Source of the DNA: a virus
Virus record (IMG/VR): IMGVR_UViG_3300043434_000693
Span: 1 to 64,000 of that record
Length of the DNA stretch: 64,000 bases
Reading direction: 5' to 3' (one strand)
The position numbers and the translations under genes are program-made. Below are positions 3,601-54,179 of the stretch, piece by piece. Position 1 is the first letter of the stretch; each line of letters begins with the position of its first letter. The notes under the pieces were generated by a model, which worked only from the letters and a program-made list of their open reading frames with translations, had not been told where the DNA came from and ran no database searches.

Positions 3601-6600
3601 AAACATTATTACCTGTTTTCAAAGTAAATGTAAAATCACTTGAAATTGCTGTACCAGAATAGGTAATCGAAGTTATCGGTCCTAGCGGACCTGCACCAGA
3701 TATAGATCCTACTGTAATAATTAAATCGTTTGTTGGTGTTGAACCCCCCAGATTTGCACCGCTTATTGTTATCTGTTGACCGACTGCATATCCTGCTCCG
3801 CCCAATGATAATGTCGGTGTATAAGATCCTGCTGTGCGATCTACATTAAATGTTGCACCGGATCCAGATGTTGTATATGGTGCAACACCGGTATATGTTC
3901 CATCGGTAGATGATCCAGTTCCTACAAAAGAGAATGTTGAAATTCCTCCTAATGGACCGGCGCCGTCTATTGCAGTAACGGTAATTGTAAGATCATTTGC
4001 AGGTGTTGCTCCGCCTAAGTTTGCACCACTCAATGTCACAGTTTGGCCGACCGTATACGATGATCCTGCATTTGCTAACGTAACAGAATATGCAGTTGAG
4101 GAAACTGTTACATTAAATGTTGATCCTGAACCTGACACACTTGTTTGAGCTACACCGGTATAAACAGCATCTCCGCTTACACTATCTCCGTTAAATGCAA
4201 CTGCGGTTACGCCGCCTCCGCCGTCGATACCTGTAACAGTTATAGTTAAATCGTTTGCAGGACTTGCACCGTCTAAATCTGTACCTAAAATTAAGATTCT
4301 GTCATCTACTTGATAATTAGATCCAGCGGTTGTAGGAGTTACGTTACTATATTCACCGATTGTTCGAGTTACAGAAAATACTGCACCTGCACCAATTGGA
4401 TTAATATTAGTTCCGGGAACATTGACAAAATTAGCAGTATTACCAACTTTAGGAGCAGTAAGAGGAGCAGTAAGATTTACGGTTGTTCCTGCAATACTAC
4501 TTACAAATGTAGAAGTTCCATTACCATTGTCTATCGCCATTCCTTCTAATATCCCAGTGGCATCTGATACTTCTATCTCGGTTTCTCCGATTAATGCATT
4601 TGTTGCTAATGCCGCAGTAACAGCAATTCCTCCAGATCCGACTACGCCCGAAACTTGAGATCCTGATGCTATTCCAGTTCCTGTTAAAGGAGCACCGATC
4701 GACGGTGCAGTTCCACTAAATGCAACTTGGTCTGATCCTAATATCGTGTTAAATTCACTAGTAAATGAACTAGCCGAACCGTTACTGTAAACACTAAATG
4801 CCGGAGTTCCTAACGATGCTCCGGTATAAAATGCTGCTTTTCTTAACTGTGTATAACTTGTAGCAAGGATTTGTCCGTTTGATGTTCCTACTTTTGCAAC
4901 AGCATAATATGTAAATGTAGTAGTTGACGGAACAGAATTGATAATAAATGTTCCTTCTGCTCTACTAAAACCAGTAATAGTATTTGCTAAAGCTCTAACG
5001 GTAATCGGAGTACCAATTGTAAATCCATGAGGGCCGGTCGTGGTTACTGTGATTAATGATTCACCGACTCCGCCTGTACCAATCGAAGCATCTGTAGTAA
5101 CAGTAACAACCGATGTATCTGTACCCGGAACTTCGTATACAGACGGATATCCTCTTGATAATCCAATAGCTTGCCATTTTGTTGGCTGTAATCCGTATTC
5201 AAAGTCTGCATCTAGCATCGACTGCGGAGCAGCAATACGCATACGTTCAATAGCATCTGTTCCAAAATCGTAAGGTCGAACTTTTATTTCGGGCATTTCT
5301 ACAAACATTTGAATACTATCAGTACTCGATGATGTAGAAGTATCTGCATCAAGTGTTAACGTAGTGACATAGTCTGATGTTTGTAAGAATGCCGGAAAAT
5401 CGTCGTCGGTGTAATATCCATTGCTATTATAAGCAGTATTAACATTTGCAACACCTCCTAATTGAGGATCACTAAAGTTGTAGATAATTTGATTATTAGT
5501 TGTGTTAGTTATTAACAATAAGTCTTCAAGAGTGTGATGTCCTTGAACTTTAATAGTAGTTACACCATTAACTAATGCAGGTAGACTATCTAAACCCCCT
5601 GAGATAACATCAGTTAATATAGTTGTTAAGGTTGTTATTCTTACATTAACTCCAATTTCCGGTGTTAATGAAGGATTAATATCTAAATTAACTTCAGTTT
5701 GAAGTGGTGTATATGACTGTCCGTTGATGATTACATCATTAATTAAGTCTCTAATAAATTCATGTGTTACAATTTCCGGCTCTCGACTGCCGTCAACCTG
5801 TGGTAATAGTCCGTTCCAATATCTCGATGATACGTGTCTAATTTGTGCATTTCCGCCGTATCGCAAGTCGTTTAGATATGCATCTAATACATATCCAACA
5901 TCTCTCTCGCATTTAGATTGATCATATATGTAAGCTGCAAAAGGGTATTGGGAATTCGTAATCGGACTAGTAACAAAAATGCTTAATCCGTTAGCAATAA
6001 CATTCGTTAATCTAGTAGATAACGCTGTTATAATTGTACTTGCGCCTGCTTCTCCGTCAGTTCCCGATGTATTTTGAGTAGCAATAACCGGGCTTTGTTG
6101 AGACGTATACAACGTTTTTGTAAAAATATATGTATTAATGATGTTCTTAAGTTGTGTATGCGCTTCAACTTCCGGAGCTCTATTACCGTCAATCTGCGGT
6201 GTACCACTAATCCAATATTGTTTTGACACAGCCGATGTCTTTTCATTTCCGCCATATCTTAGATCGTGTATGTATGCATCAATAACATATCCAACATCCC
6301 TCTTACATTTGGCCGAGTCGTACGTGTACCCAGTAAACGAAGGACTTCCTGCTAACACTTGTGCTGCAATCCATGCTGTAATTTCTTCTTGTAAAAATGT
6401 TTTGTTATTAGTTAATAATGCTACTGCATTTGGAAACAAATTTTCTAAAGTTTCATTAATAATAGAGTCAGCAATAAATGCCGATGCTTCTTTTTTAAGA
6501 AACTCTTTATTATCGTTTATGAGTTCGTGGGCATTTGGAAATAAATTTTCAGATCTCGAAACTCCTGGTAGGAAAACGTAATTTTGTATTCTTTGTTTAG

Positions 6601-7795: not shown

Positions 7796-9595
7796 TTAAT
7801 TTGCAATTTTTATTAATTTTCCGTATTCGGGCAAATACAGATATTCGATATCGCTGTTTGCTAATGTTTCAACAGCATCAAATAATGTTTCAACTAATGG
7901 ATCTCCTCCGAGATTAAAACTAGTGTTAAATAAAATTGGACATCCGGTTGCATTATAGAAAGTGTTAATTAACTCGTAATAATGTTTATTTTGTTCTGGT
8001 GTTACTGTTTGAATTCGACAAGTTCCGTCGATATGAATAATGCTCGGAATCTTTTCTTCGACTCCGGGCTGACAATTAACAGCATACATCATTGTCGGAC
8101 TTTCGTCCATTCCTCTTAAATCAAACCATTCGTGGACATGTTCTTTTAGAATAGTACCTGCAAATGGTCTAAAATATTCTCTACGTTTAACACCATTAAC
8201 AAAATCTTTTCCGTCTTTAAATCTCGGATCAAATAATACCGATCTGTTTCCTAATGCTCGAGGACCGTTTTCGCTTCTTCCTTGGAAAATAGTAACAATA
8301 TTTTTTTGAGTTAATAAATTAACAATATCATCGGGCGTAGCGTTAGTTATTTCAGCGGCATGTGTTTCTGCATAACTGTTTATTTCATCGTCAGAATAGC
8401 AATACTGCGGACCTAAATACAAAGTATCTGCACGAGGACTTACAGTTGTATCTTCACTCAATGCTCTCCAAAACATTAAACTCGCACCGATAGCTGTTCC
8501 GGCATCATTACTTACTGGTTCACAATATAACTCGATACCGGCATCTTTTAATGCTTCGAGATAGTAATAGTTTGCTACGCAATTTAATCCAAATCCGCCG
8601 CTTAATACAACTTTCTTTCTTCCGGTCATTTGTACTGCTTTTTTAATCAGCTTAACTACTTGTTCTTGAGTTTGTGTTTGACATGCATACGCAAGGTCTC
8701 TTCGATTTTGTAATTTAGTAATGTCAGATGCATTACTATCAGTTAATTCGTCAAATAATGTAGCATTAACCCACGCCCCATTTGGATATGTTGGAACAAT
8801 AGCGTTTCTATTTGACATCGGGTAAATGCCAGATTCATCAAATAATTTTGGTATATTGTCGTTCGGTGCTCCATAAGGGAACAACCCCATAGTTTTACCA
8901 GCTTCGATCGAACTCCATCCGCAATATTGGGTAACTGCTTCGTATACTTTAGTAATCCCAGCTCTTTCTGAAATTAAGCACTCATGTGTTCCTTCTTCAT
9001 CATATAAATTGCTGTTAAAATCTTTAACTAACCCTCCAACATTTGGTCCTCGTAAACCAATATGCTTAAAAATAGTTTTAAATTCTGCTGGATAATTGCA
9101 ATTAATAATCGATTCAACTTCCCATCCGGTTTCATGTTGATTATCAATTTGTAAAGGAATAAATGTTCCAGCACCGTCGACAACTACTGAAACTGCTTCG
9201 TCGAACCCTGATCGATAAAAAGAACAAGCAGAATGAAGTTTATGGTGCATATGGCTCATATCAATCACTTGCGGATGATTTCTACCTTTATACGATCTAT
9301 CTATCAATCCTAACTTTCTAGCTAATCCGGTATACACATCATCGCCGCTATAGTCAACTCTTCCTGCTGTATCTTGCAAACTTTGTGTATGTGCTACAAC
9401 AAGATAATCTAATCGATCAGTATATTCTAAGATTTTAACAATCGATGCATATGGTCCACCATCGTATTTTGCTCGTGTTATACGTTCTTCTTCGATTGAA
9501 AAAACAATTTCCCCATCTTTAAGTAAACATACTCCAGCATTATGCCCTCTTGCTATACCGGCAATCCAAACTGGTTTCTTTGTTTCGTTAGTCAT
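7796..9595 (-). CDS. Carbamoyltransferase, NodU/CmcH/TobZ family
   Basis: N-terminal GHNAGVCLLKDG..EEERITRAK, HHKLH, VVDGAG, GKTMGL, LSGGFGLNCVAN, NDAGTAIGA, GRSENGPRALGNRS, KRREYFRPFA, HIDGTCRIQTV and NTSFNLGGDPLVET. Confidence 0.93.
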   Translation of the reverse strand: MTNETKKPVWIAGIARGHNAGVCLLKDGEIVFSIEEERITRAKYDGGPYASIVKILEYTDRLDYLVVAHTQSLQDTAGRVDYSGDDVYTGLARKLGLIDRSYKGRNHPQVIDMSHMHHKLHSACSFYRSGFDEAVSVVVDGAGTFIPLQIDNQHETGWEVESIINCNYPAEFKTIFKHIGLRGPNVGGLVKDFNSNLYDEEGTHECLISERAGITKVYEAVTQYCGWSSIEAGKTMGLFPYGAPNDNIPKLFDESGIYPMSNRNAIVPTYPNGAWVNATLFDELTDSNASDITKLQNRRDLAYACQTQTQEQVVKLIKKAVQMTGRKKVVLSGGFGLNCVANYYYLEALKDAGIELYCEPVSNDAGTAIGASLMFWRALSEDTTVSPRADTLYLGPQYCYSDDEINSYAETHAAEITNATPDDIVNLLTQKNIVTIFQGRSENGPRALGNRSVLFDPRFKDGKDFVNGVKRREYFRPFAGTILKEHVHEWFDLRGMDESPTMMYAVNCQPGVEEKIPSIIHIDGTCRIQTVTPEQNKHYYELINTFYNATGCPILFNTSFNLGGDPLVETLFDAVETLANSDIEYLYLPEYGKLIKIAN

Positions 9596-37892: not shown

Positions 37893-38921
37893 TTATGCGT
37901 TTTCAATTTGGACAACTGATCCACTTGCTGCTGCGAAAGACCATTGTGCAACTTCACCGGTTGCAAATAACCAATCTAAGTCACCACCGTCGTCAACTAA
38001 GCGGGTTAACTTTGCTTTATGTGCAGTTAATTTAGTAACATAATATGTGTTACCGTTCGCATCTGTTGCAATAATTGTTGCTTCGCCTGCTGCTGGAGTA
38101 TCTGCAACTAATGTCACACGGCCTACACCTTGTGCAGTCTTAACAATATACTTCTTGCTTCCAACTTGACGAAGAATATCGCCTAATACTGCTGATGTTC
38201 CATCTCCTGAAACATTTCCTGCTGCACCTGCTGCAGGGACCCATGCAGTAATTTGAATAGCGTTTTCTTGATTGGTTACACTACCGACATTACCTGTATC
38301 AGTAGTTAATACTGCTGTTTTAGTTGCATTACCGGTCATAGTAATTGCAGGAGCAGAAACATATCCTGAACCTTTTTCGTCAATTGCTACTGCTAACACG
38401 CCCCATGTAATGTCAACTCTTAGATTGTTACCGGTGCCGCCTGTTGTAAACATACTAGCAACTGTGCTACCTGGATCACTAACTGCTGTAGCTCCATTAT
38501 ATGCAAGTACAGTATATGAACCGCCGTCTACAAGTTCAACTGTAGTAGCTGCTCCGCCACCATCAACACTTTTAATTCTAAAACTTGCACGAGTAGTATA
38601 GGTACCGTCAACTGTTCCAGTGCCACCAGGTAAAGAACCGCTTCCTAATTCTACTAGTTCTTCATCGATATAGCTTCCGCCGCCATTATCAATACTAACT
38701 GATTTAACTACCATTGTTACAGTACCAGCTGTTGCAGTTACACCAGTAGGTAAAGTTGGTGCTGCAAAGGTTACTGAAGGAACTGCAATGTAGTTATTGT
38801 TTGTTCCACCGATAGTTACACTTGCAACTCCTTGACCGCCAATTCCATAATTGTCAGCGGTTGTGCTTGCGGAACCGACATTGCGGTTACCAAAAAATTT
38901 CTTATTTAATGGGCGTCCCAT
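37893..38921 (-). CDS. Virion protein downstream of the major capsid gene (possible head decoration/appendage protein)
   Basis: 342 aa, Gly/Thr/Ala-rich, strong AAGGAG RBS, with its own late box and downstream hairpin. Confidence 0.55.
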   Translation of the reverse strand: MGRPLNKKFFGNRNVGSASTTADNYGIGGQGVASVTIGGTNNNYIAVPSVTFAAPTLPTGVTATAGTVTMVVKSVSIDNGGGSYIDEELVELGSGSLPGGTGTVDGTYTTRASFRIKSVDGGGAATTVELVDGGSYTVLAYNGATAVSDPGSTVASMFTTGGTGNNLRVDITWGVLAVAIDEKGSGYVSAPAITMTGNATKTAVLTTDTGNVGSVTNQENAIQITAWVPAAGAAGNVSGDGTSAVLGDILRQVGSKKYIVKTAQGVGRVTLVADTPAAGEATIIATDANGNTYYVTKLTAHKAKLTRLVDDGGDLDWLFATGEVAQWSFAAASGSVVQIENA

Positions 38922-38984
38922 TTGTTTTCTCCTTTAAAACGTTCTAGGTTTACGCAGAGGGATTCTGCATAATTTTAGACAAAG

Positions 38985-38992
38985 TATTTATC
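38985..38992 (-). promoter_or_regulatory. Late promoter box GATAAATA
   Basis: Directly after the MCP terminator, upstream of the 38921 start. Confidence 0.7.
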
Positions 38993-38995
38993 AGA

Positions 38996-49482: not shown

Positions 49483-49490
49483 TATTTATA
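49483..49490 (-). promoter_or_regulatory. Late promoter TATAAATA
   Basis: Perfect consensus 21 nt upstream of the 49461 start. Confidence 0.75.
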
Positions 49491-50018
49491 GTTGAACTAC
49501 GTTCAACTGTGTTTTCGCTATCGCTCAACACATATTGTTTCTTTTTTGAAGGGCGAAGCATTTTTAAGATTATCTAGATTAATCGGCCATATTTCGCCCT
49601 GCGAGGGGCGAAAAAAATAAACTGGATATTATCTGAGTATCACAGCCATATAGCGTTAGGACTATAATGTTACATAAAGATAGCATAAATCAATTAAATG
49701 TTATCTTTATGTAGCATTTCGTAGGCGGTCATCCGGTACCTACTCATCCCGTCTTCGTAATGACGGCGGTTTGCAAATATACGCTATAACATATATGCAA
49801 ACGCGAAGGGTTTCCCTTCTCTTTTAGCCTTTATTGTTCTAGATAGTTTAAACCGGTTCTGTGAAGGCACATCCGATCATGGTCCTGTTAAGGATACTAA
49901 ACTAAATCTCTGCTACAGCCCAGAAATCCCGCCTTGCGACTTCACCAAGGGTAAGGACACCTAAATATCTTGCCGGTGTGAGCATTATCTGTAGTTAAAT
50001 TGCCTAAATATGCCTTAA
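49490..50018 (-). ncRNA. Candidate large structured non-coding RNA (~450-530 nt), family not recognised
   Basis: Largest ORF-free gap in the window. More than 12 hand-paired helices, G-U pairs mostly on the minus strand, and three loop-mediated pseudoknot/kissing pairings. Confidence 0.7.
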
Positions 50019-50669
50019 TTATGATTTTTTATTAGATAGAAGCCTGCCACGAATAAACCCTTCGCTTGGACAATTTATAGACATTGTACAAGTAACTCCG
50101 TTATTCCACCAAACTTTACCTTTACGTTTTTCTTTAAGAATTGCCTTTTGTTCATCAGTCCATTGGTAGTTGAACATAGAATTGTTTTCTCCTGATGTAT
50201 GCGATCGAGGACCTCTACACGAATTAGAAATTTTTTGTCTACGTTCTTCTGATATTGGACCGTATTTTTTACCTAAATGTGATTGTCTTTTCTTTTCTTT
50301 AGTTTCTTTTGAATCTTTAATGCCTAATCTGCTAGGCGGAGTTCTAGGATTCTTTTTATTATATTCACTTAGTTTAACATTTTTAAATCCGGGTGATTGC
50401 CCATCGATACCGTTTTCGATAACGCAATTTGCCCATTCTTTTGATTCTACTATCATATTTTTTACAGAAAAATCAATTGCAAACTTTTTACACTCTTCTA
50501 AATTGTCAAATTTCCAAATTTGAACAGTTTCAACATAGTTTCCATGCTGTATTACATGTCGTTTCCAATAAATCCCTGACCCTTTATATTTGTAAGGATC
50601 CTTAATAGTTTTACCAAAGTAGTTTAAACCTGTGACTAAATGGCGTTTGTGATATAGATATGTAATCAC
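50019..50669 (-). mobile_element. Free-standing GIY-YIG homing endonuclease (Seg-like) with NUMOD3-type repeats
   Basis: YLYHKRH..GLNYFGKT..PYKYKGSG catalytic region, WANC..ENG, SKETKEKKRQSHLGKK and SEERRQKISNS repeats, terminal WWNNG..GFIRGRL. GTG start overlaps the upstream TGA. Confidence 0.8.
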
Positions 50670-51100
50670 CCAAATAATTTACCATTTATATGTTTCTTAT
50701 GAACTCGTACTTGCACATGACCGTTGTAATAAGAATCTGATTCTAATACTTTTCTACTAAATTGTTCTCTTGCCTCTACGTACGAACACTCTGCCTTTGA
50801 TTTACAATAATAAAGTATTTCTCGTTTGAAGTTATCTTCGCCTAATTTTTTAACGTCGTTATTAAGCTCGATGTTTGATCCGTAATATTCCCGCCAGTCT
50901 GAATCTATTTTAGTTTTAATTCTTTTCTTTTTCTTCTTGCCGTTTTTTAATGTAACAACCTTATAAGAAGTTTTTGTGAATTGTGCTAGTTTTTTACCAA
51001 TATACATTCGACCATTGGTTAAATTAGTGATGAGATAGACAAAGCCTACACAATCGTCGGGAAGAGTCTCGATGATTTTTTTCTTGTAGTGCCATGACAT
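50666..51100 (-). CDS. Small stand-alone GIY-YIG nuclease (144 aa)
   Basis: GFVYLITNLTNGRMYIGKK, DWREYYGS, NFKREIL, YVEAREQ, YYNG; Lys-rich insert; no C-terminal DNA-binding repeats. Confidence 0.85.
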   Translation of the reverse strand: MSWHYKKKIIETLPDDCVGFVYLITNLTNGRMYIGKKLAQFTKTSYKVVTLKNGKKKKKRIKTKIDSDWREYYGSNIELNNDVKKLGEDNFKREILYYCKSKAECSYVEAREQFSRKVLESDSYYNGHVQVRVHKKHINGKLFG

Positions 51101-51105
51101 ATCCT

Positions 51106-51387
51106 TTAATTATCATCGCTTAATCCGTCATTTGAGCCATTTTGATTTTTTCGAGCCTCTATTCTTTTTAAGCCTGCTTTACTTGCCTTCATAGGAGCAA
51201 AGTTATCATATCTCCATTCTTGGATAAGTTTTCTTTGCTCCGAACATAATTTTCTAATCTTTTTTAAACTATTTCTTACCCTAATTGCTGATCTATGACT
51301 TTGATTTACTGCCCAAAGTTGATTTAGTTCGAAATATTTTCGAAACTCTTTCATTATTTCGTCATGTAATTCAGAATCTGGAATCAT
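51106..51387 (-). CDS. Small basic protein, possibly histone-H1-like nucleic-acid binder
   Basis: SAIRVRNSLKKIRKLCSEQRKLIQE resembles the AgtRaRkaL.el.kl.k..Rk.i motif of small phage/bacterial H1-like proteins. Confidence 0.4.
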   Translation of the reverse strand: MIPDSELHDEIMKEFRKYFELNQLWAVNQSHRSAIRVRNSLKKIRKLCSEQRKLIQEWRYDNFAPMKASKAGLKRIEARKNQNGSNDGLSDDN

Positions 51388-53166
51388 TTATCTAATCTCT
51401 AAATCGTTTGCATACGATGTAAAACCGTTTTCTTTGATAACCTTTAATACATTACTAACACGACCTACTAATTCGTCTTTATGACTAATTAAGAAAATAT
51501 TTTTCTTACGTTCTCGACCCATCTTCTTTAGTACAGATAACGCATTTTCAACACCGTTTGCATCCAACCCGTTATCAATAAGTTCGTCTACAAACAACAA
51601 ATTAATTCCTTGATATAAACTTTCCCAAACATCTCTAAATGCCCATGAAAGACCTAAAATTAATCGATTCCTTTCTCCTCTTGACAAGTTATCAAAGTCT
51701 AAGTCTTGCCCCAATTGTGTAATTTCAACTGTTAGATCGTTTTGGAATGTGACAAGATGCGGTAATCCCATCTTGTCTAGATAATAAGTTAACCGATTGT
51801 TCAAATAACCTAAATTTTGATCGATAATCTTTTTTCTTATAAAACTGTCCTTACTTGTTAACAATTTTAATAGGAATTCTTGATGTTCTTTTAACTCGGT
51901 TAACGAATTTATTTCTTCCCACGAAATGTCTTGTAACGCAGTATTTCGTAAATTATCAATTTGCTCTTGATAAGGGTCTATTTCGTCAGATTTATTAATC
52001 AGTTGTGTTTCAAGAGACGCAAGATTATTTTGATGTTTTAATGCTTCTTCGACGGTTTCATAGTACGGTTCTGGTCTTAGACCTAGTTCACCAAACGATT
52101 GAAGTTCAAGTGACACTTTGTTCAATTGAGATGATACATTGTGAAGATAGTCTTGCGATTCAGATAAGTGGCTAGTAGCAAGAGCAGTTAACTCTTCATG
52201 TTTATGATCATGCAGCTCTTGATCACACGCATGACATGTTTTATTCTTTAAACTTTCTAATTCTTTAGCATACTTGTCAGATGTTTTTTGAGCCTGTATA
52301 ACTGATGATTCTAGTGTAGCTTTTTCTTTAGTAAGACTCTTAATCTTAGCTGATGCTGCATCGTATTCTTTAACGGTTGCATGTACTAATAATTCTGCTT
52401 CAATATCAATACTTTCTAATTCAACGATAGCTTTACCGATTTTTTCTAAAGTTTGATATTTTTGTTGATTCCATGCAGACAACTTTTTCTCGAGACTATC
52501 GATACTTTCTTGTATTTTTTCGTTAGTTTTTTTAATTGCTTCGATGTTAGCAGTCTCTTGAATTATTTGATCTTTTGTGGATTTAATTTTAATTTTTAAA
52601 GATTCTGCCTTATCGGATAATTGTGTAATCCCTAACAGTTGTTCGATGATTTCTCTCTGATCTGAAGACCTCATAGATAAAAACGGTTCGGAGTAGGTAT
52701 TGAGCATAAGAATATGCTTGGCCATAGTGTGGCTCATACCAATCAAATCAGTTAAATCTTTTTGAGTTTCTCGATTGTCACCTTGTGCATCATCAGTTTC
52801 TTCTTGTTCTTGTTCTTGATCGTTAACATAAAATTTAAGAATAGACGGTTTCCTTCCTCGTTCGATGCGATAGTTGACACCGTTTTTTTCAAATGCAAGT
52901 GTTACTAACATATTTTTATTATTAATTTTATTGATCAAGTTATCTTTTTTAATGTTAGTCAAAGCAATGCCAAACAACGCATAACTTAATGCATTAACGA
53001 TGGTAGTTTTTCCGGTACCGTTTCTTGATCCGCTATCGTCTCCACCTTGATCGAGATTTTCACCGAGAACTAATGTTAAGTTTTCTCGAGCGAAATCTAC
53101 AGCCTGGGTTTGATTACCCACACTCATAAAATTTTTTACGGTTAAAGTTTTTAAATTAATAGACAT
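51388..53166 (-). CDS. gp46: Recombination endonuclease ATPase subunit, gp46/SbcC/Rad50-like
   Basis: KNFMSVGN, Walker A NGTGKTT, zinc hook CHAC, signature LSRGE, Walker B LLFVDE, ISHK. Confidence 0.95.
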   Translation of the reverse strand: MSINLKTLTVKNFMSVGNQTQAVDFARENLTLVLGENLDQGGDDSGSRNGTGKTTIVNALSYALFGIALTNIKKDNLINKINNKNMLVTLAFEKNGVNYRIERGRKPSILKFYVNDQEQEQEETDDAQGDNRETQKDLTDLIGMSHTMAKHILMLNTYSEPFLSMRSSDQREIIEQLLGITQLSDKAESLKIKIKSTKDQIIQETANIEAIKKTNEKIQESIDSLEKKLSAWNQQKYQTLEKIGKAIVELESIDIEAELLVHATVKEYDAASAKIKSLTKEKATLESSVIQAQKTSDKYAKELESLKNKTCHACDQELHDHKHEELTALATSHLSESQDYLHNVSSQLNKVSLELQSFGELGLRPEPYYETVEEALKHQNNLASLETQLINKSDEIDPYQEQIDNLRNTALQDISWEEINSLTELKEHQEFLLKLLTSKDSFIRKKIIDQNLGYLNNRLTYYLDKMGLPHLVTFQNDLTVEITQLGQDLDFDNLSRGERNRLILGLSWAFRDVWESLYQGINLLFVDELIDNGLDANGVENALSVLKKMGRERKKNIFLISHKDELVGRVSNVLKVIKENGFTSYANDLEIR

Positions 53167-54179
53167 TATAGATCGTTGTATATAGATAGTAACATATTTT
53201 TATTATATGCTTCGGAATCGATATTTACAAGCTGATTTGATACAATCTGATCAATTGATTCAAATGCTTGTACATCAAATTCAGTATTGATAACTGAATC
53301 TTTCTTTTCTGCTATTAATGTGATCTCTCGAAGATTATATTCTTTTATAAATTTTTCTTTAATAAAACTAGCCTCTTCAAAAGTAATATCAATATCTAAC
53401 GAAACTCTAAGATGTTGTTTTGGCCTTAACATTTGGTCTGAATTATCGATCAAATTACTAAGACTAGTATTTCGAAAAGTTGGTTGTTGAGGCCACGTAT
53501 GAAACTCTGGCTCTTGACCCCATTCTAAGATCATCATACCTCGATCATCGTCCCAAGAATCAGAATAGTTATGAGGGAATGCATTTCCGATGTAACAGAT
53601 ATTTTTGTTTCGTTGCCGTTTATGGAAATGCCCGCTAAATGCTAGATCATAATTTTTAAAATGTCCTAATTGTATTTCTCCATGATCTGGCATTTGAATC
53701 ATTGCATTCATATAAAATGTAGGTAGTTCAAAATGACCAAAAATATATTTGGAAGATTTTTTAGTAATTTGTTTCCATTCGTCGCCGACTAGCCACGGAC
53801 ATAGTGTTACATCACCCTCGGTAAAAGGATGATGTACAACAGTAATTCCGGGTATATATTTTCCAAATTCTACAGAATGAATATCCCGCTTGTCTTTATA
53901 GTATAGATCATGATTGCCAGGGAAAAAATAAAAGTTATCAAACGCTTGACCGAGTTTTTCAAGGGCGCGTAAACTATAATCCATGGTAGTAATATTAAGA
54001 CTGTTGCGATTATGATGCCAGTCTCCCAAGAATATTCCTGTGTCACATCCTTCCTCCTGTGCTTTTTTAATAAACCAATCAACAAAGTCTTCGCAGTCTT
54101 GATTGTGGACCGAACTATTTGACTTTAAACCAAAATGAATGTCAGTAAAACATGCTGCTTTCTTAAAAAGATTGCTCAT
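53166..54179 (-). CDS. gp47: Recombination endonuclease nuclease subunit, gp47/SbcD/Mre11-like
   Basis: Metallophosphoesterase motifs DIHFG, LGDWHH, GNHD, GHFE, SGHFH. Confidence 0.95.
   Translation of the reverse strand: MSNLFKKAACFTDIHFGLKSNSSVHNQDCEDFVDWFIKKAQEEGCDTGIFLGDWHHNRNSLNITTMDYSLRALEKLGQAFDNFYFFPGNHDLYYKDKRDIHSVEFGKYIPGITVVHHPFTEGDVTLCPWLVGDEWKQITKKSSKYIFGHFELPTFYMNAMIQMPDHGEIQLGHFKNYDLAFSGHFHKRQRNKNICYIGNAFPHNYSDSWDDDRGMMILEWGQEPEFHTWPQQPTFRNTSLSNLIDNSDQMLRPKQHLRVSLDIDITFEEASFIKEKFIKEYNLREITLIAEKKDSVINTEFDVQAFESIDQIVSNQLVNIDSEAYNKNMLLSIYNDL

Follow-up and report, generated by a model that had tools for sequence, protein, structure and literature searches.

The stretch of DNA analyzed here (64,000 nucleotides [nt], referred to below as the window) is part of the 96-kb record of an uncultured freshwater T4-like virus, IMGVR_UViG_3300043434_000693. 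On its minus strand it carries, in a row, a gene for a 144-amino-acid (aa) GIY-YIG nuclease, a gene for a 216-aa GIY-YIG homing endonuclease, and a structured RNA of ~495 nt. These elements are probably a conserved stand-alone nuclease and an independent large RNA that are neighbors and not partners, with a selfish endonuclease gene lodged in the spacer between them. A domain-only nuclease beside an ornate RNA invites the thought of a new enzyme guided by RNA; if true, this would be of major importance. RNA guidance is unlikely here, since the nuclease and the RNA each also occur alone, and showing this should spare effort at the bench.

Adjacency of the gene and the RNA has already been published. 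Most Polynucleobacter-1 RNAs, modeled at 141 nt and with no example in purified phage, lie downstream of GOS11034 genes that are possibly homologous to PSSM2_218, and the gene upstream of the RNA was not recognized as that of a GIY-YIG nuclease (Weinberg et al., 2010; PMC2864571). What is new is the homing endonuclease gene wedged into this junction, together with evidence that the small gene has moved between two genomic sites. The locus is a clean natural case of a homing endonuclease gene inside a very conserved gene-RNA junction, with a target site that is easy to guess. The small nuclease is a strongly conserved, near-core phage protein, misannotated as “NAD synthetase,” whose gene appears to have moved. 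The RNA, which is the more interesting object, firmly links an orphan Rfam motif with T4-like phages and with whole-length counterparts in small genomes of Burkholderiales, in one case next to defense genes.

The nuclease, the RNA, and the gene between them

Minus-strand genes follow one another without gaps in the order gp55-like sigma factor, 75-aa open reading frame (ORF), gp47, gp46, 93-aa ORF, 144-aa ORF, and 216-aa ORF, after which 557 nt are gene free before the next ORF. With neither a gap nor a promoter or terminator between the genes, the RNA probably forms the 3′ end of one transcript shared with the nuclease genes. In the window's lineage, the small nuclease is the last conserved ORF before the RNA.

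The small nuclease gene (positions 50666 to 51100, minus strand) encodes a single GIY-YIG domain. Residues 3 to 128 match PF19835 (SegE_GIY-YIG; E value, 7e-33; 113.9 bits versus a cutoff of 25), covering profile positions 1 to 122 of 123, long insert included, and the protein also matches phrog_447 (3e-36). It falls in cyanophage cluster T4-GC 213, as does PSSM2_218, which is annotated “NAD synthetase, T4-GC 213” and matches it by BLASTP at 1e-21. The AlphaFold2 (AF2) model has a predicted local distance difference test score (pLDDT) of 96.4. Structural neighbors of the model were taken from a VIA-align wide search, in which the top match was the I-TevI catalytic domain (1LN0; Z, 8.4; root mean square deviation [rmsd], 2.8 Å; 83 residues aligned). 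The next real matches, all of them GIY-YIG proteins, were 9U75 (PD-T4-3; Z, 7.3), 1YCZ (UvrC-N; Z, 5.8), and 2WSH (T4 EndoII; Z, 5.5). Foldseek with the same model returned nothing at an E value of ≤0.001, and a PDB sequence search with the protein gave one weak, irrelevant match.

Eight residues (F20, Y22, Y33, G35, Y72, S75, E109, and N126) are invariant in 70 homologues, and R93 is conserved in at least 90% of them. Judged by motif order, Y22, Y33, R93, E109, and N126 would be equivalent to Y6, Y17, R27, E75, and N90 of I-TevI, and nuclease activity is predicted. The protein would be a catalytically intact, domain-only DNA nuclease kept by the phage for a DNA-level job of its own. The basic, Lys-rich insert (residues 47 to 64; codons at 50909 to 50962, minus strand) is modeled as a long β-hairpin arm with strands at residues 40 to 50 and 56 to 66. 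The original description of a catalytic domain alone with a very basic insert was therefore accurate, with the addition that the hairpin is family-wide: it is present in the 70-homologue consensus and in the alignment with the P-SSM2 protein, and it occurs in RNA-less phages, including cyanophages, as well. The insert was considered as an RNA-binding adaptation, and this was dropped because it occurs throughout the family. A stand-alone length of 130 to 165 aa is likewise the norm (2,280 representative clusters). The gene is under strong purifying selection and is present in one copy per large contig. The protein lacks the separate DNA-recognition domain of a homing endonuclease, and its gene is fixed in the lineage in which it follows gp46. 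Deposited phage genomes widely call phrog_447/T4-GC 213 “NAD synthetase” (e.g., L084:26712-27149), a name for which sequence and fold give no support.

The RNA (49491 to 49984) lies on the same strand as the nuclease genes. Its first 144 nt (49841 to 49984, minus strand) are Rfam RF01718, Polynucleobacter-1 (71.4 bits; gathering score, 37; E value, 3.6e-13), and the remaining, uncatalogued 3′ two-thirds (49491 to 49840, minus strand) are recognized by conserved alignment blocks, covariation, and the fold z-score of −4.8 of the window copy. RF01718 scored 70 to 121 bits in 14 of 19 relatives tested, and the downstream regions of relatives align well past the Rfam model. Across 56 diverse RNAs, 98 base pairs in 22 helices were found, with 93% of cells paired compared with about 39% in slid controls; 60 pairs show compensatory changes, and 635 cells are doubly changed compared with about 95 in the controls. 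Conserved G-U pairs place the RNA on the strand of the nuclease genes. This is a real, ~495-nt extended form of Polynucleobacter-1 and probably an independent RNA. A blastn search of the region against deposited phages gave no match.

Within the 3′ part, twin AGATAAT boxes (49634 to 49628 and 49575 to 49569; together spanning 49569 to 49634, minus strand) flank a GC hairpin. They covary across the 56 RNAs as identical, not complementary, letters, and diverged marine RNAs carry different twin words. Directly 3′ of the last hairpin, and 22 nt before the ATG (49461) of a 332-aa ORF, a T4 late-promoter-like box, TATAAATA (49483 to 49490, minus strand), can be read, and many relatives have a similar box at the corresponding position. 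The box probably serves as a T4-type late promoter and marks the 3′ limit of the RNA.

The 216-aa gene (50019 to 50669, minus strand) sits as a precise insertion in the short spacer that follows the nuclease stop codon and leads up to the 5′ end of the RNA. Its GTG start (50669 to 50667) shares a GTGA overlap with the TGA stop of the 144-aa gene (50668 to 50666), through which it would borrow translation. The protein has no Pfam domain above threshold and no PF19835 match even at an E value of 5. The N-terminal ~90 residues of its model have pLDDT values of >90, and the N-terminal 93 residues match 1LN0 best (Z, 7.9; rmsd, 2.8 Å; 81 of 92 aligned), followed by 9U75, 2WSH, 7WME, and 1YCZ. In 41 homologues, Y17, G19, Y28, G30-S31-G32, N81, and E85 are invariant, and Y4, L5, and Y6 are at least 90% conserved. 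Residues 148 to 194 match the I-TevI DNA-binding domain (1I3J; E value, 0.003). Two coupled GIY-YIG genes had been proposed, and the shared strand, the overlap, and the I-TevI-like folds of both products agree with this. The 216-aa protein had also been called Seg-like with NUMOD3-type repeats. The fold and the 1I3J match bear out the first part; NUMOD3 is below threshold in the window copy (14.7 bits versus a cutoff of 20.4) and is carried by homologues, clearly so (4e-9) in one with 62% identity (P0013). This homologue shares the start MITYLYHKR and has a C-terminal NUMOD1 match slightly below the cutoff (2.3e-4), in an extension that the shorter window protein lacks.

The closest homologues of the 216-aa protein (78% identity) come from metagenomes, and a metagenome scan with it returned four distant fragments only. 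About 330 related loci were surveyed, and none has a homologue where the small nuclease gene meets the RNA, which makes the wedge specific to the window's phage. For this reason the gene is read as a late arrival, as the original prediction had it, and the survey supports a sporadic, free-standing homing endonuclease insertion of the I-TevI/Seg type. Partial relatives lie elsewhere: beside phage GroEL (L209), convergent behind the nuclease gene (L204), upstream of gp46 (L452), and between nrdB and the nuclease gene (L362). Such varied sites and orientations, read from gene order, look like the behavior of a free-standing homing endonuclease gene. The gene most likely spreads by cutting the conserved junction in phages that do not carry it. 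A degenerate group I intron carrying a GIY-YIG ORF was considered and rejected, as Rfam matched no intron model here and RNA is present on the 3′ side of the ORF only. In the uncultured phage contig L209 (1557 to 4864), the relative is a 309-aa protein encoded directly after phage GroES and GroEL genes.

Linkage and separation of the nuclease gene and the RNA

Gene order was surveyed from both sides, in 80 IMG/VR loci whose small nuclease is 65 to 76% identical to that of the window and in about 110 further loci found through the RNA by sequence pattern; most of the contigs are fragments. The order gp47-gp46-…-small nuclease was found in 80 of 80 protein-first loci, and the small gene lies upstream of the RNA in all RNA-first loci except L114, L122, and L137. 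In most loci the RNA begins 4 to 50 nt past the nuclease stop codon on the same strand. Where both ends could be placed (173 loci), the gap was ≤60 nt in 159, 61 to 150 nt in 7, and occupied by an inserted gene of 0.8 to 1.0 kb in 7. Small GIY-YIG gene plus large RNA is thus a standing arrangement in this phage lineage, as had been proposed. The genes inserted in the last seven loci are same-strand ORFs of 257 to 337 aa, one of them methyltransferase-like, in which no endonuclease signature was seen. The suggestion that the junction is a conserved site favored by homing endonucleases therefore fits the 216-aa gene and does not extend to these unrelated insertions.

The distance from gp46 to the small gene is variable (median, 458 nt; range, 44 to 4,563 nt), with variable cargo. 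Proximity to gp46 and gp47 had been taken to point to a role in recombination or replication; this link is weakened by the intervening cargo and by the position of the gene after nrdB elsewhere. Marine-type contigs encode nucleases 47 to 58% identical to that of the window. Where these follow gp46, a gene-free stretch of 380 to 720 nt comes next, and where they follow nrdB, the next ORF begins at once. The RF01718 model did not detect the marine gene-free stretches, which nevertheless align with the RNA in shared core blocks, twin words, and 3′ hairpins. From the presence of homologous RNA behind such divergent nucleases, the adjacency is old where it is present.

The nuclease gene also occurs without the RNA. 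In 66 loci it follows nrdB, encodes a protein 65 to 75% identical to that of the window, and is succeeded at once by the next ORF, with no RNA. Two complete genomes of this context (G001 and G002) have no RF01718 match, and the whole genome of G001 also had no match to the RNA profiles built in this study. The idea that nrdB-context genomes hold a diverged RNA behind gp46 was considered and dropped: in G001, that region consists of a terminator-like hairpin followed by ordinary coding sequence (z, −0.77). Melnitz, C48C1, and cyanophages likewise have the gene and lack the RNA. Of the 69 conserved columns of RNA-linked proteins, 60 are identical in RNA-less ones, and the sole clear switch is Y98F. 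The basic hairpin is equally conserved in both groups, and the column comparison revealed no signature of an RNA-binding surface.

Conversely, the RNA occurs without the nuclease gene. RF01718 matched in 4 of 151 sampled Burkholderiales genomes (1.7 to 1.9 Mb), three of them above the cutoff, and the small nuclease was found in none of the four. The ~520-nt RNA of one of these genomes (G066) has the same 3′ modules along its whole length and lies beside Zorya ZorC/ZorD and an integrase (L441; G066:C4:66000-79000). A divergent DUF6641 (PF20346) gene adjoins the RNA in all three bacterial genomes whose context was read (L441, L442, and L443). These bacteria are possibly phage hosts, and an RNA from a host island may be what the phage RNA imitates or counteracts. 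A pattern scan of genome contigs gave chance matches in GC-rich genomes, none of which fit the RNA profile. Two phage loci add to this picture. In L114, the slot order is gp46, 93-aa ORF, PD-(D/E)XK nuclease, and RNA, the GIY-YIG gene being replaced by a gene (3963 to 4484, plus strand) for a 173-aa PDDEXK_15 nuclease (PF24608, 2.5e-29; phrog_244, resolvase-like). Phage contig L137 carries a permuted transfer-messenger RNA (tmRNA; RF04321, 92.5 bits; 3911 to 4304), a tRNA (5169 to 5240), and the large RNA (RF01718, 64 bits; 8395 to 8856), with an amidoligase-like ORF upstream and no GIY-YIG gene nearby.

Co-occurrence is therefore not obligate: the nuclease stands alone in 66 loci and two complete genomes, and the RNA stands alone in four bacterial genomes, L114, and L137. 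The original prediction had named independent distribution across phages as the observation that would speak against a partnership, and the distribution is largely of this kind, the nuclease being alone in the nrdB context and the RNA in bacteria and two phage loci.

The nuclease gene seems to have moved as well. Between the window's phage and G001, the small nucleases are 70% identical, compared with 26 to 31% for gp46, gp47, and gp55 and ≤51% for anything else. A tree of 137 proteins places the freshwater nrdB-context clade beside the protein of the window, inside gp46-context clades, and puts Melnitz within the marine gp46-context clade. An approximately unbiased (AU) test rejects a single nrdB-context clade (log-likelihood difference, 80.9; AU P value, 0.0165); the tree comprises 142 columns with modest support, and the tested clade was named after the tree had been seen. 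This is moderate evidence that the gene has changed genomic site, in a pattern that would fit at least two transfers without the RNA.

Competing explanations

Evidence for movement is also what makes it conceivable, though rather unlikely, that the small GIY-YIG gene belongs, or belonged until recently, to the mobile genes of the homing type. It would have two preferred landing sites beside very conserved sequences, one directly behind nrdB and the other directly ahead of the RNA gene, and the choice of target, not a shared function, would explain why it adjoins the RNA. The contrast between 70% identity to the G001 nuclease and 26 to 31% for gp46, gp47, and gp55, the nesting of the nrdB-context clade and Melnitz in gp46-context clades, the rejection of a single nrdB-context clade (P = 0.0165), and the closest fold match, to a homing endonuclease, all agree with this, as does the use of the same slot by a second homing endonuclease and, in L114, by a PD-(D/E)XK nuclease. 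However, the small nuclease lacks a DNA-recognition domain, and its gene behaves as a resident: it is fixed in both contexts, absent in only 2 to 3 of about 110 RNA-first loci, single copy in large contigs, and under strong purifying selection. The tree is, in addition, short and modestly supported, with the AU clade chosen after inspection. Less probable still is that the RNA is a cis-acting structured 3′ untranslated region that stabilizes or processes the transcript or tunes translation of the last gene of the operon. The start of the RNA 4 to 50 nt past the stop codon on the same strand in most loci would suit such a role, as would the absence, in the window, of any terminator on the minus strand or promoter-like gap from one gene to the next. 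Nevertheless, a highly conserved, multihelix RNA of roughly 500 nt far exceeds the need of a 3′ stabilizer, eight lineages tolerate 0.65 to 1.0 kb of inserted sequence that parts the gene from the RNA, and bacteria, L114, and L137 have the RNA but not the GIY-YIG gene, with tmRNA and tRNA genes around the RNA in L137.

It is very improbable that nuclease and RNA form a ribonucleoprotein whose RNA part provides target specificity or control, as omega-RNA does for IscB/TnpB. A catalytic-only nuclease with a basic β-hairpin arm beside a large RNA, in very tight and deeply conserved adjacency, speaks for it, and the fast-changing twin boxes must be recognized by some reader. Yet in the many phages whose nuclease has no RNA beside it, no conserved surface has relaxed, the RNA also occurs where the nuclease is absent, the arm is family-wide, and stand-alone forms of 130 to 165 aa are the family norm; to our knowledge, no GIY-YIG enzyme is RNA guided. 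The original proposal that the small nuclease owes its specificity or regulation to the RNA thus finds no support in their separate occurrence or in the conserved surfaces of RNA-less nucleases. Tolerance of inserted, unrelated genes at the junction, and the PD-(D/E)XK nuclease in place of the GIY-YIG protein in L114, also speak against it. There is equally little chance that the RNA acts as a specificity or control subunit in the RNA-bearing lineage only, with the twin boxes as one possible element. If true, this would be the first RNA-dependent GIY-YIG nuclease, and its RNA-less relatives would be unguided or have another partner.

The interpretation of the nuclease and the RNA as neighbors, with a selfish gene between them, is preferred, and several points weigh against it. 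A junction this tight across deep divergence exceeds what would be expected from synteny alone. Homologous RNA directly behind marine nucleases of 47 to 58% identity leaves room for transcriptional or functional coupling, and nrdB-context phages could conceivably carry a very divergent RNA. Homing by the 216-aa protein is predicted from the family to which it belongs.

Related systems and neighboring genes

Several known systems resemble parts of the locus. The first 144 nt of the window RNA match the Polynucleobacter-1 motif RF01718, whereas the full RNA differs in its ~495-nt length, its 22 supported helices, its location on T4-like phage contigs, and its separation from the gene by a homing endonuclease gene. 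The 144-aa protein spans the whole PF19835 catalytic-domain profile, like T4 SegE and the Seg family. Seg endonucleases have a C-terminal DNA-binding region and a sporadic distribution, whereas the small nuclease is the domain alone, fixed and strongly conserved in its lineages. I-TevI of the T4 td intron is the best fold match of both window proteins (Z, 8.4 and 7.9), and its DNA-binding linker (1I3J) is matched by the 216-aa protein. Unlike I-TevI, the 216-aa gene is free-standing and not intron encoded, and Rfam found no group I intron.

IscB/TnpB and omega-RNA (HEARO type) resemble the locus in that a nuclease gene and a large, conserved, structured RNA adjoin each other on one strand. In IscB/TnpB, linkage of the two components is obligate and the guide is part of the RNA, whereas here the nuclease and the RNA each occur alone. 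Neither transposon ends nor a guide segment was identified in the nuclease-RNA module, with no target search made for the covarying twin boxes. T4 endonuclease II (DenA; 2WSH) is, like the 144-aa protein, a small domain-only GIY-YIG phage nuclease. The small-nuclease family is adjacent to nrdB in Melnitz, C48C1, and clade B, much as denA is next to nrdB in T4. However, the fold match of the 144-aa protein to DenA (Z, 5.5; rmsd, 3.7 Å; 84 aligned) is weaker than that to I-TevI, and the PDB sequence search with it gave no match to T4 DenA.

Upstream of the small nuclease gene, a gp47-like (Mre11/SbcD-type) nuclease subunit gene (53166 to 54179, minus strand; Pfam Metallophos, 4.6e-06) precedes a gp46-like (Rad50/SbcC-type) ATPase gene (51388 to 53166, minus strand; Pfam AAA_23, 3.2e-16, plus SMC_N), as it does in related loci; gp46 identity in lineage-A loci is 52 to 79%. 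Between gp46 and the small nuclease gene lies the 93-aa ORF of unassigned function (51106 to 51387, minus strand), which has no match in Pfam or PHROG and has homologues of 32 to 47% identity in some related loci and in L114. Elsewhere in the window, Rfam RF02980, freshwater-2 RNA, matches at 38919 to 38993 (minus strand) with 52.5 bits, barely over the gathering score of 49.9.

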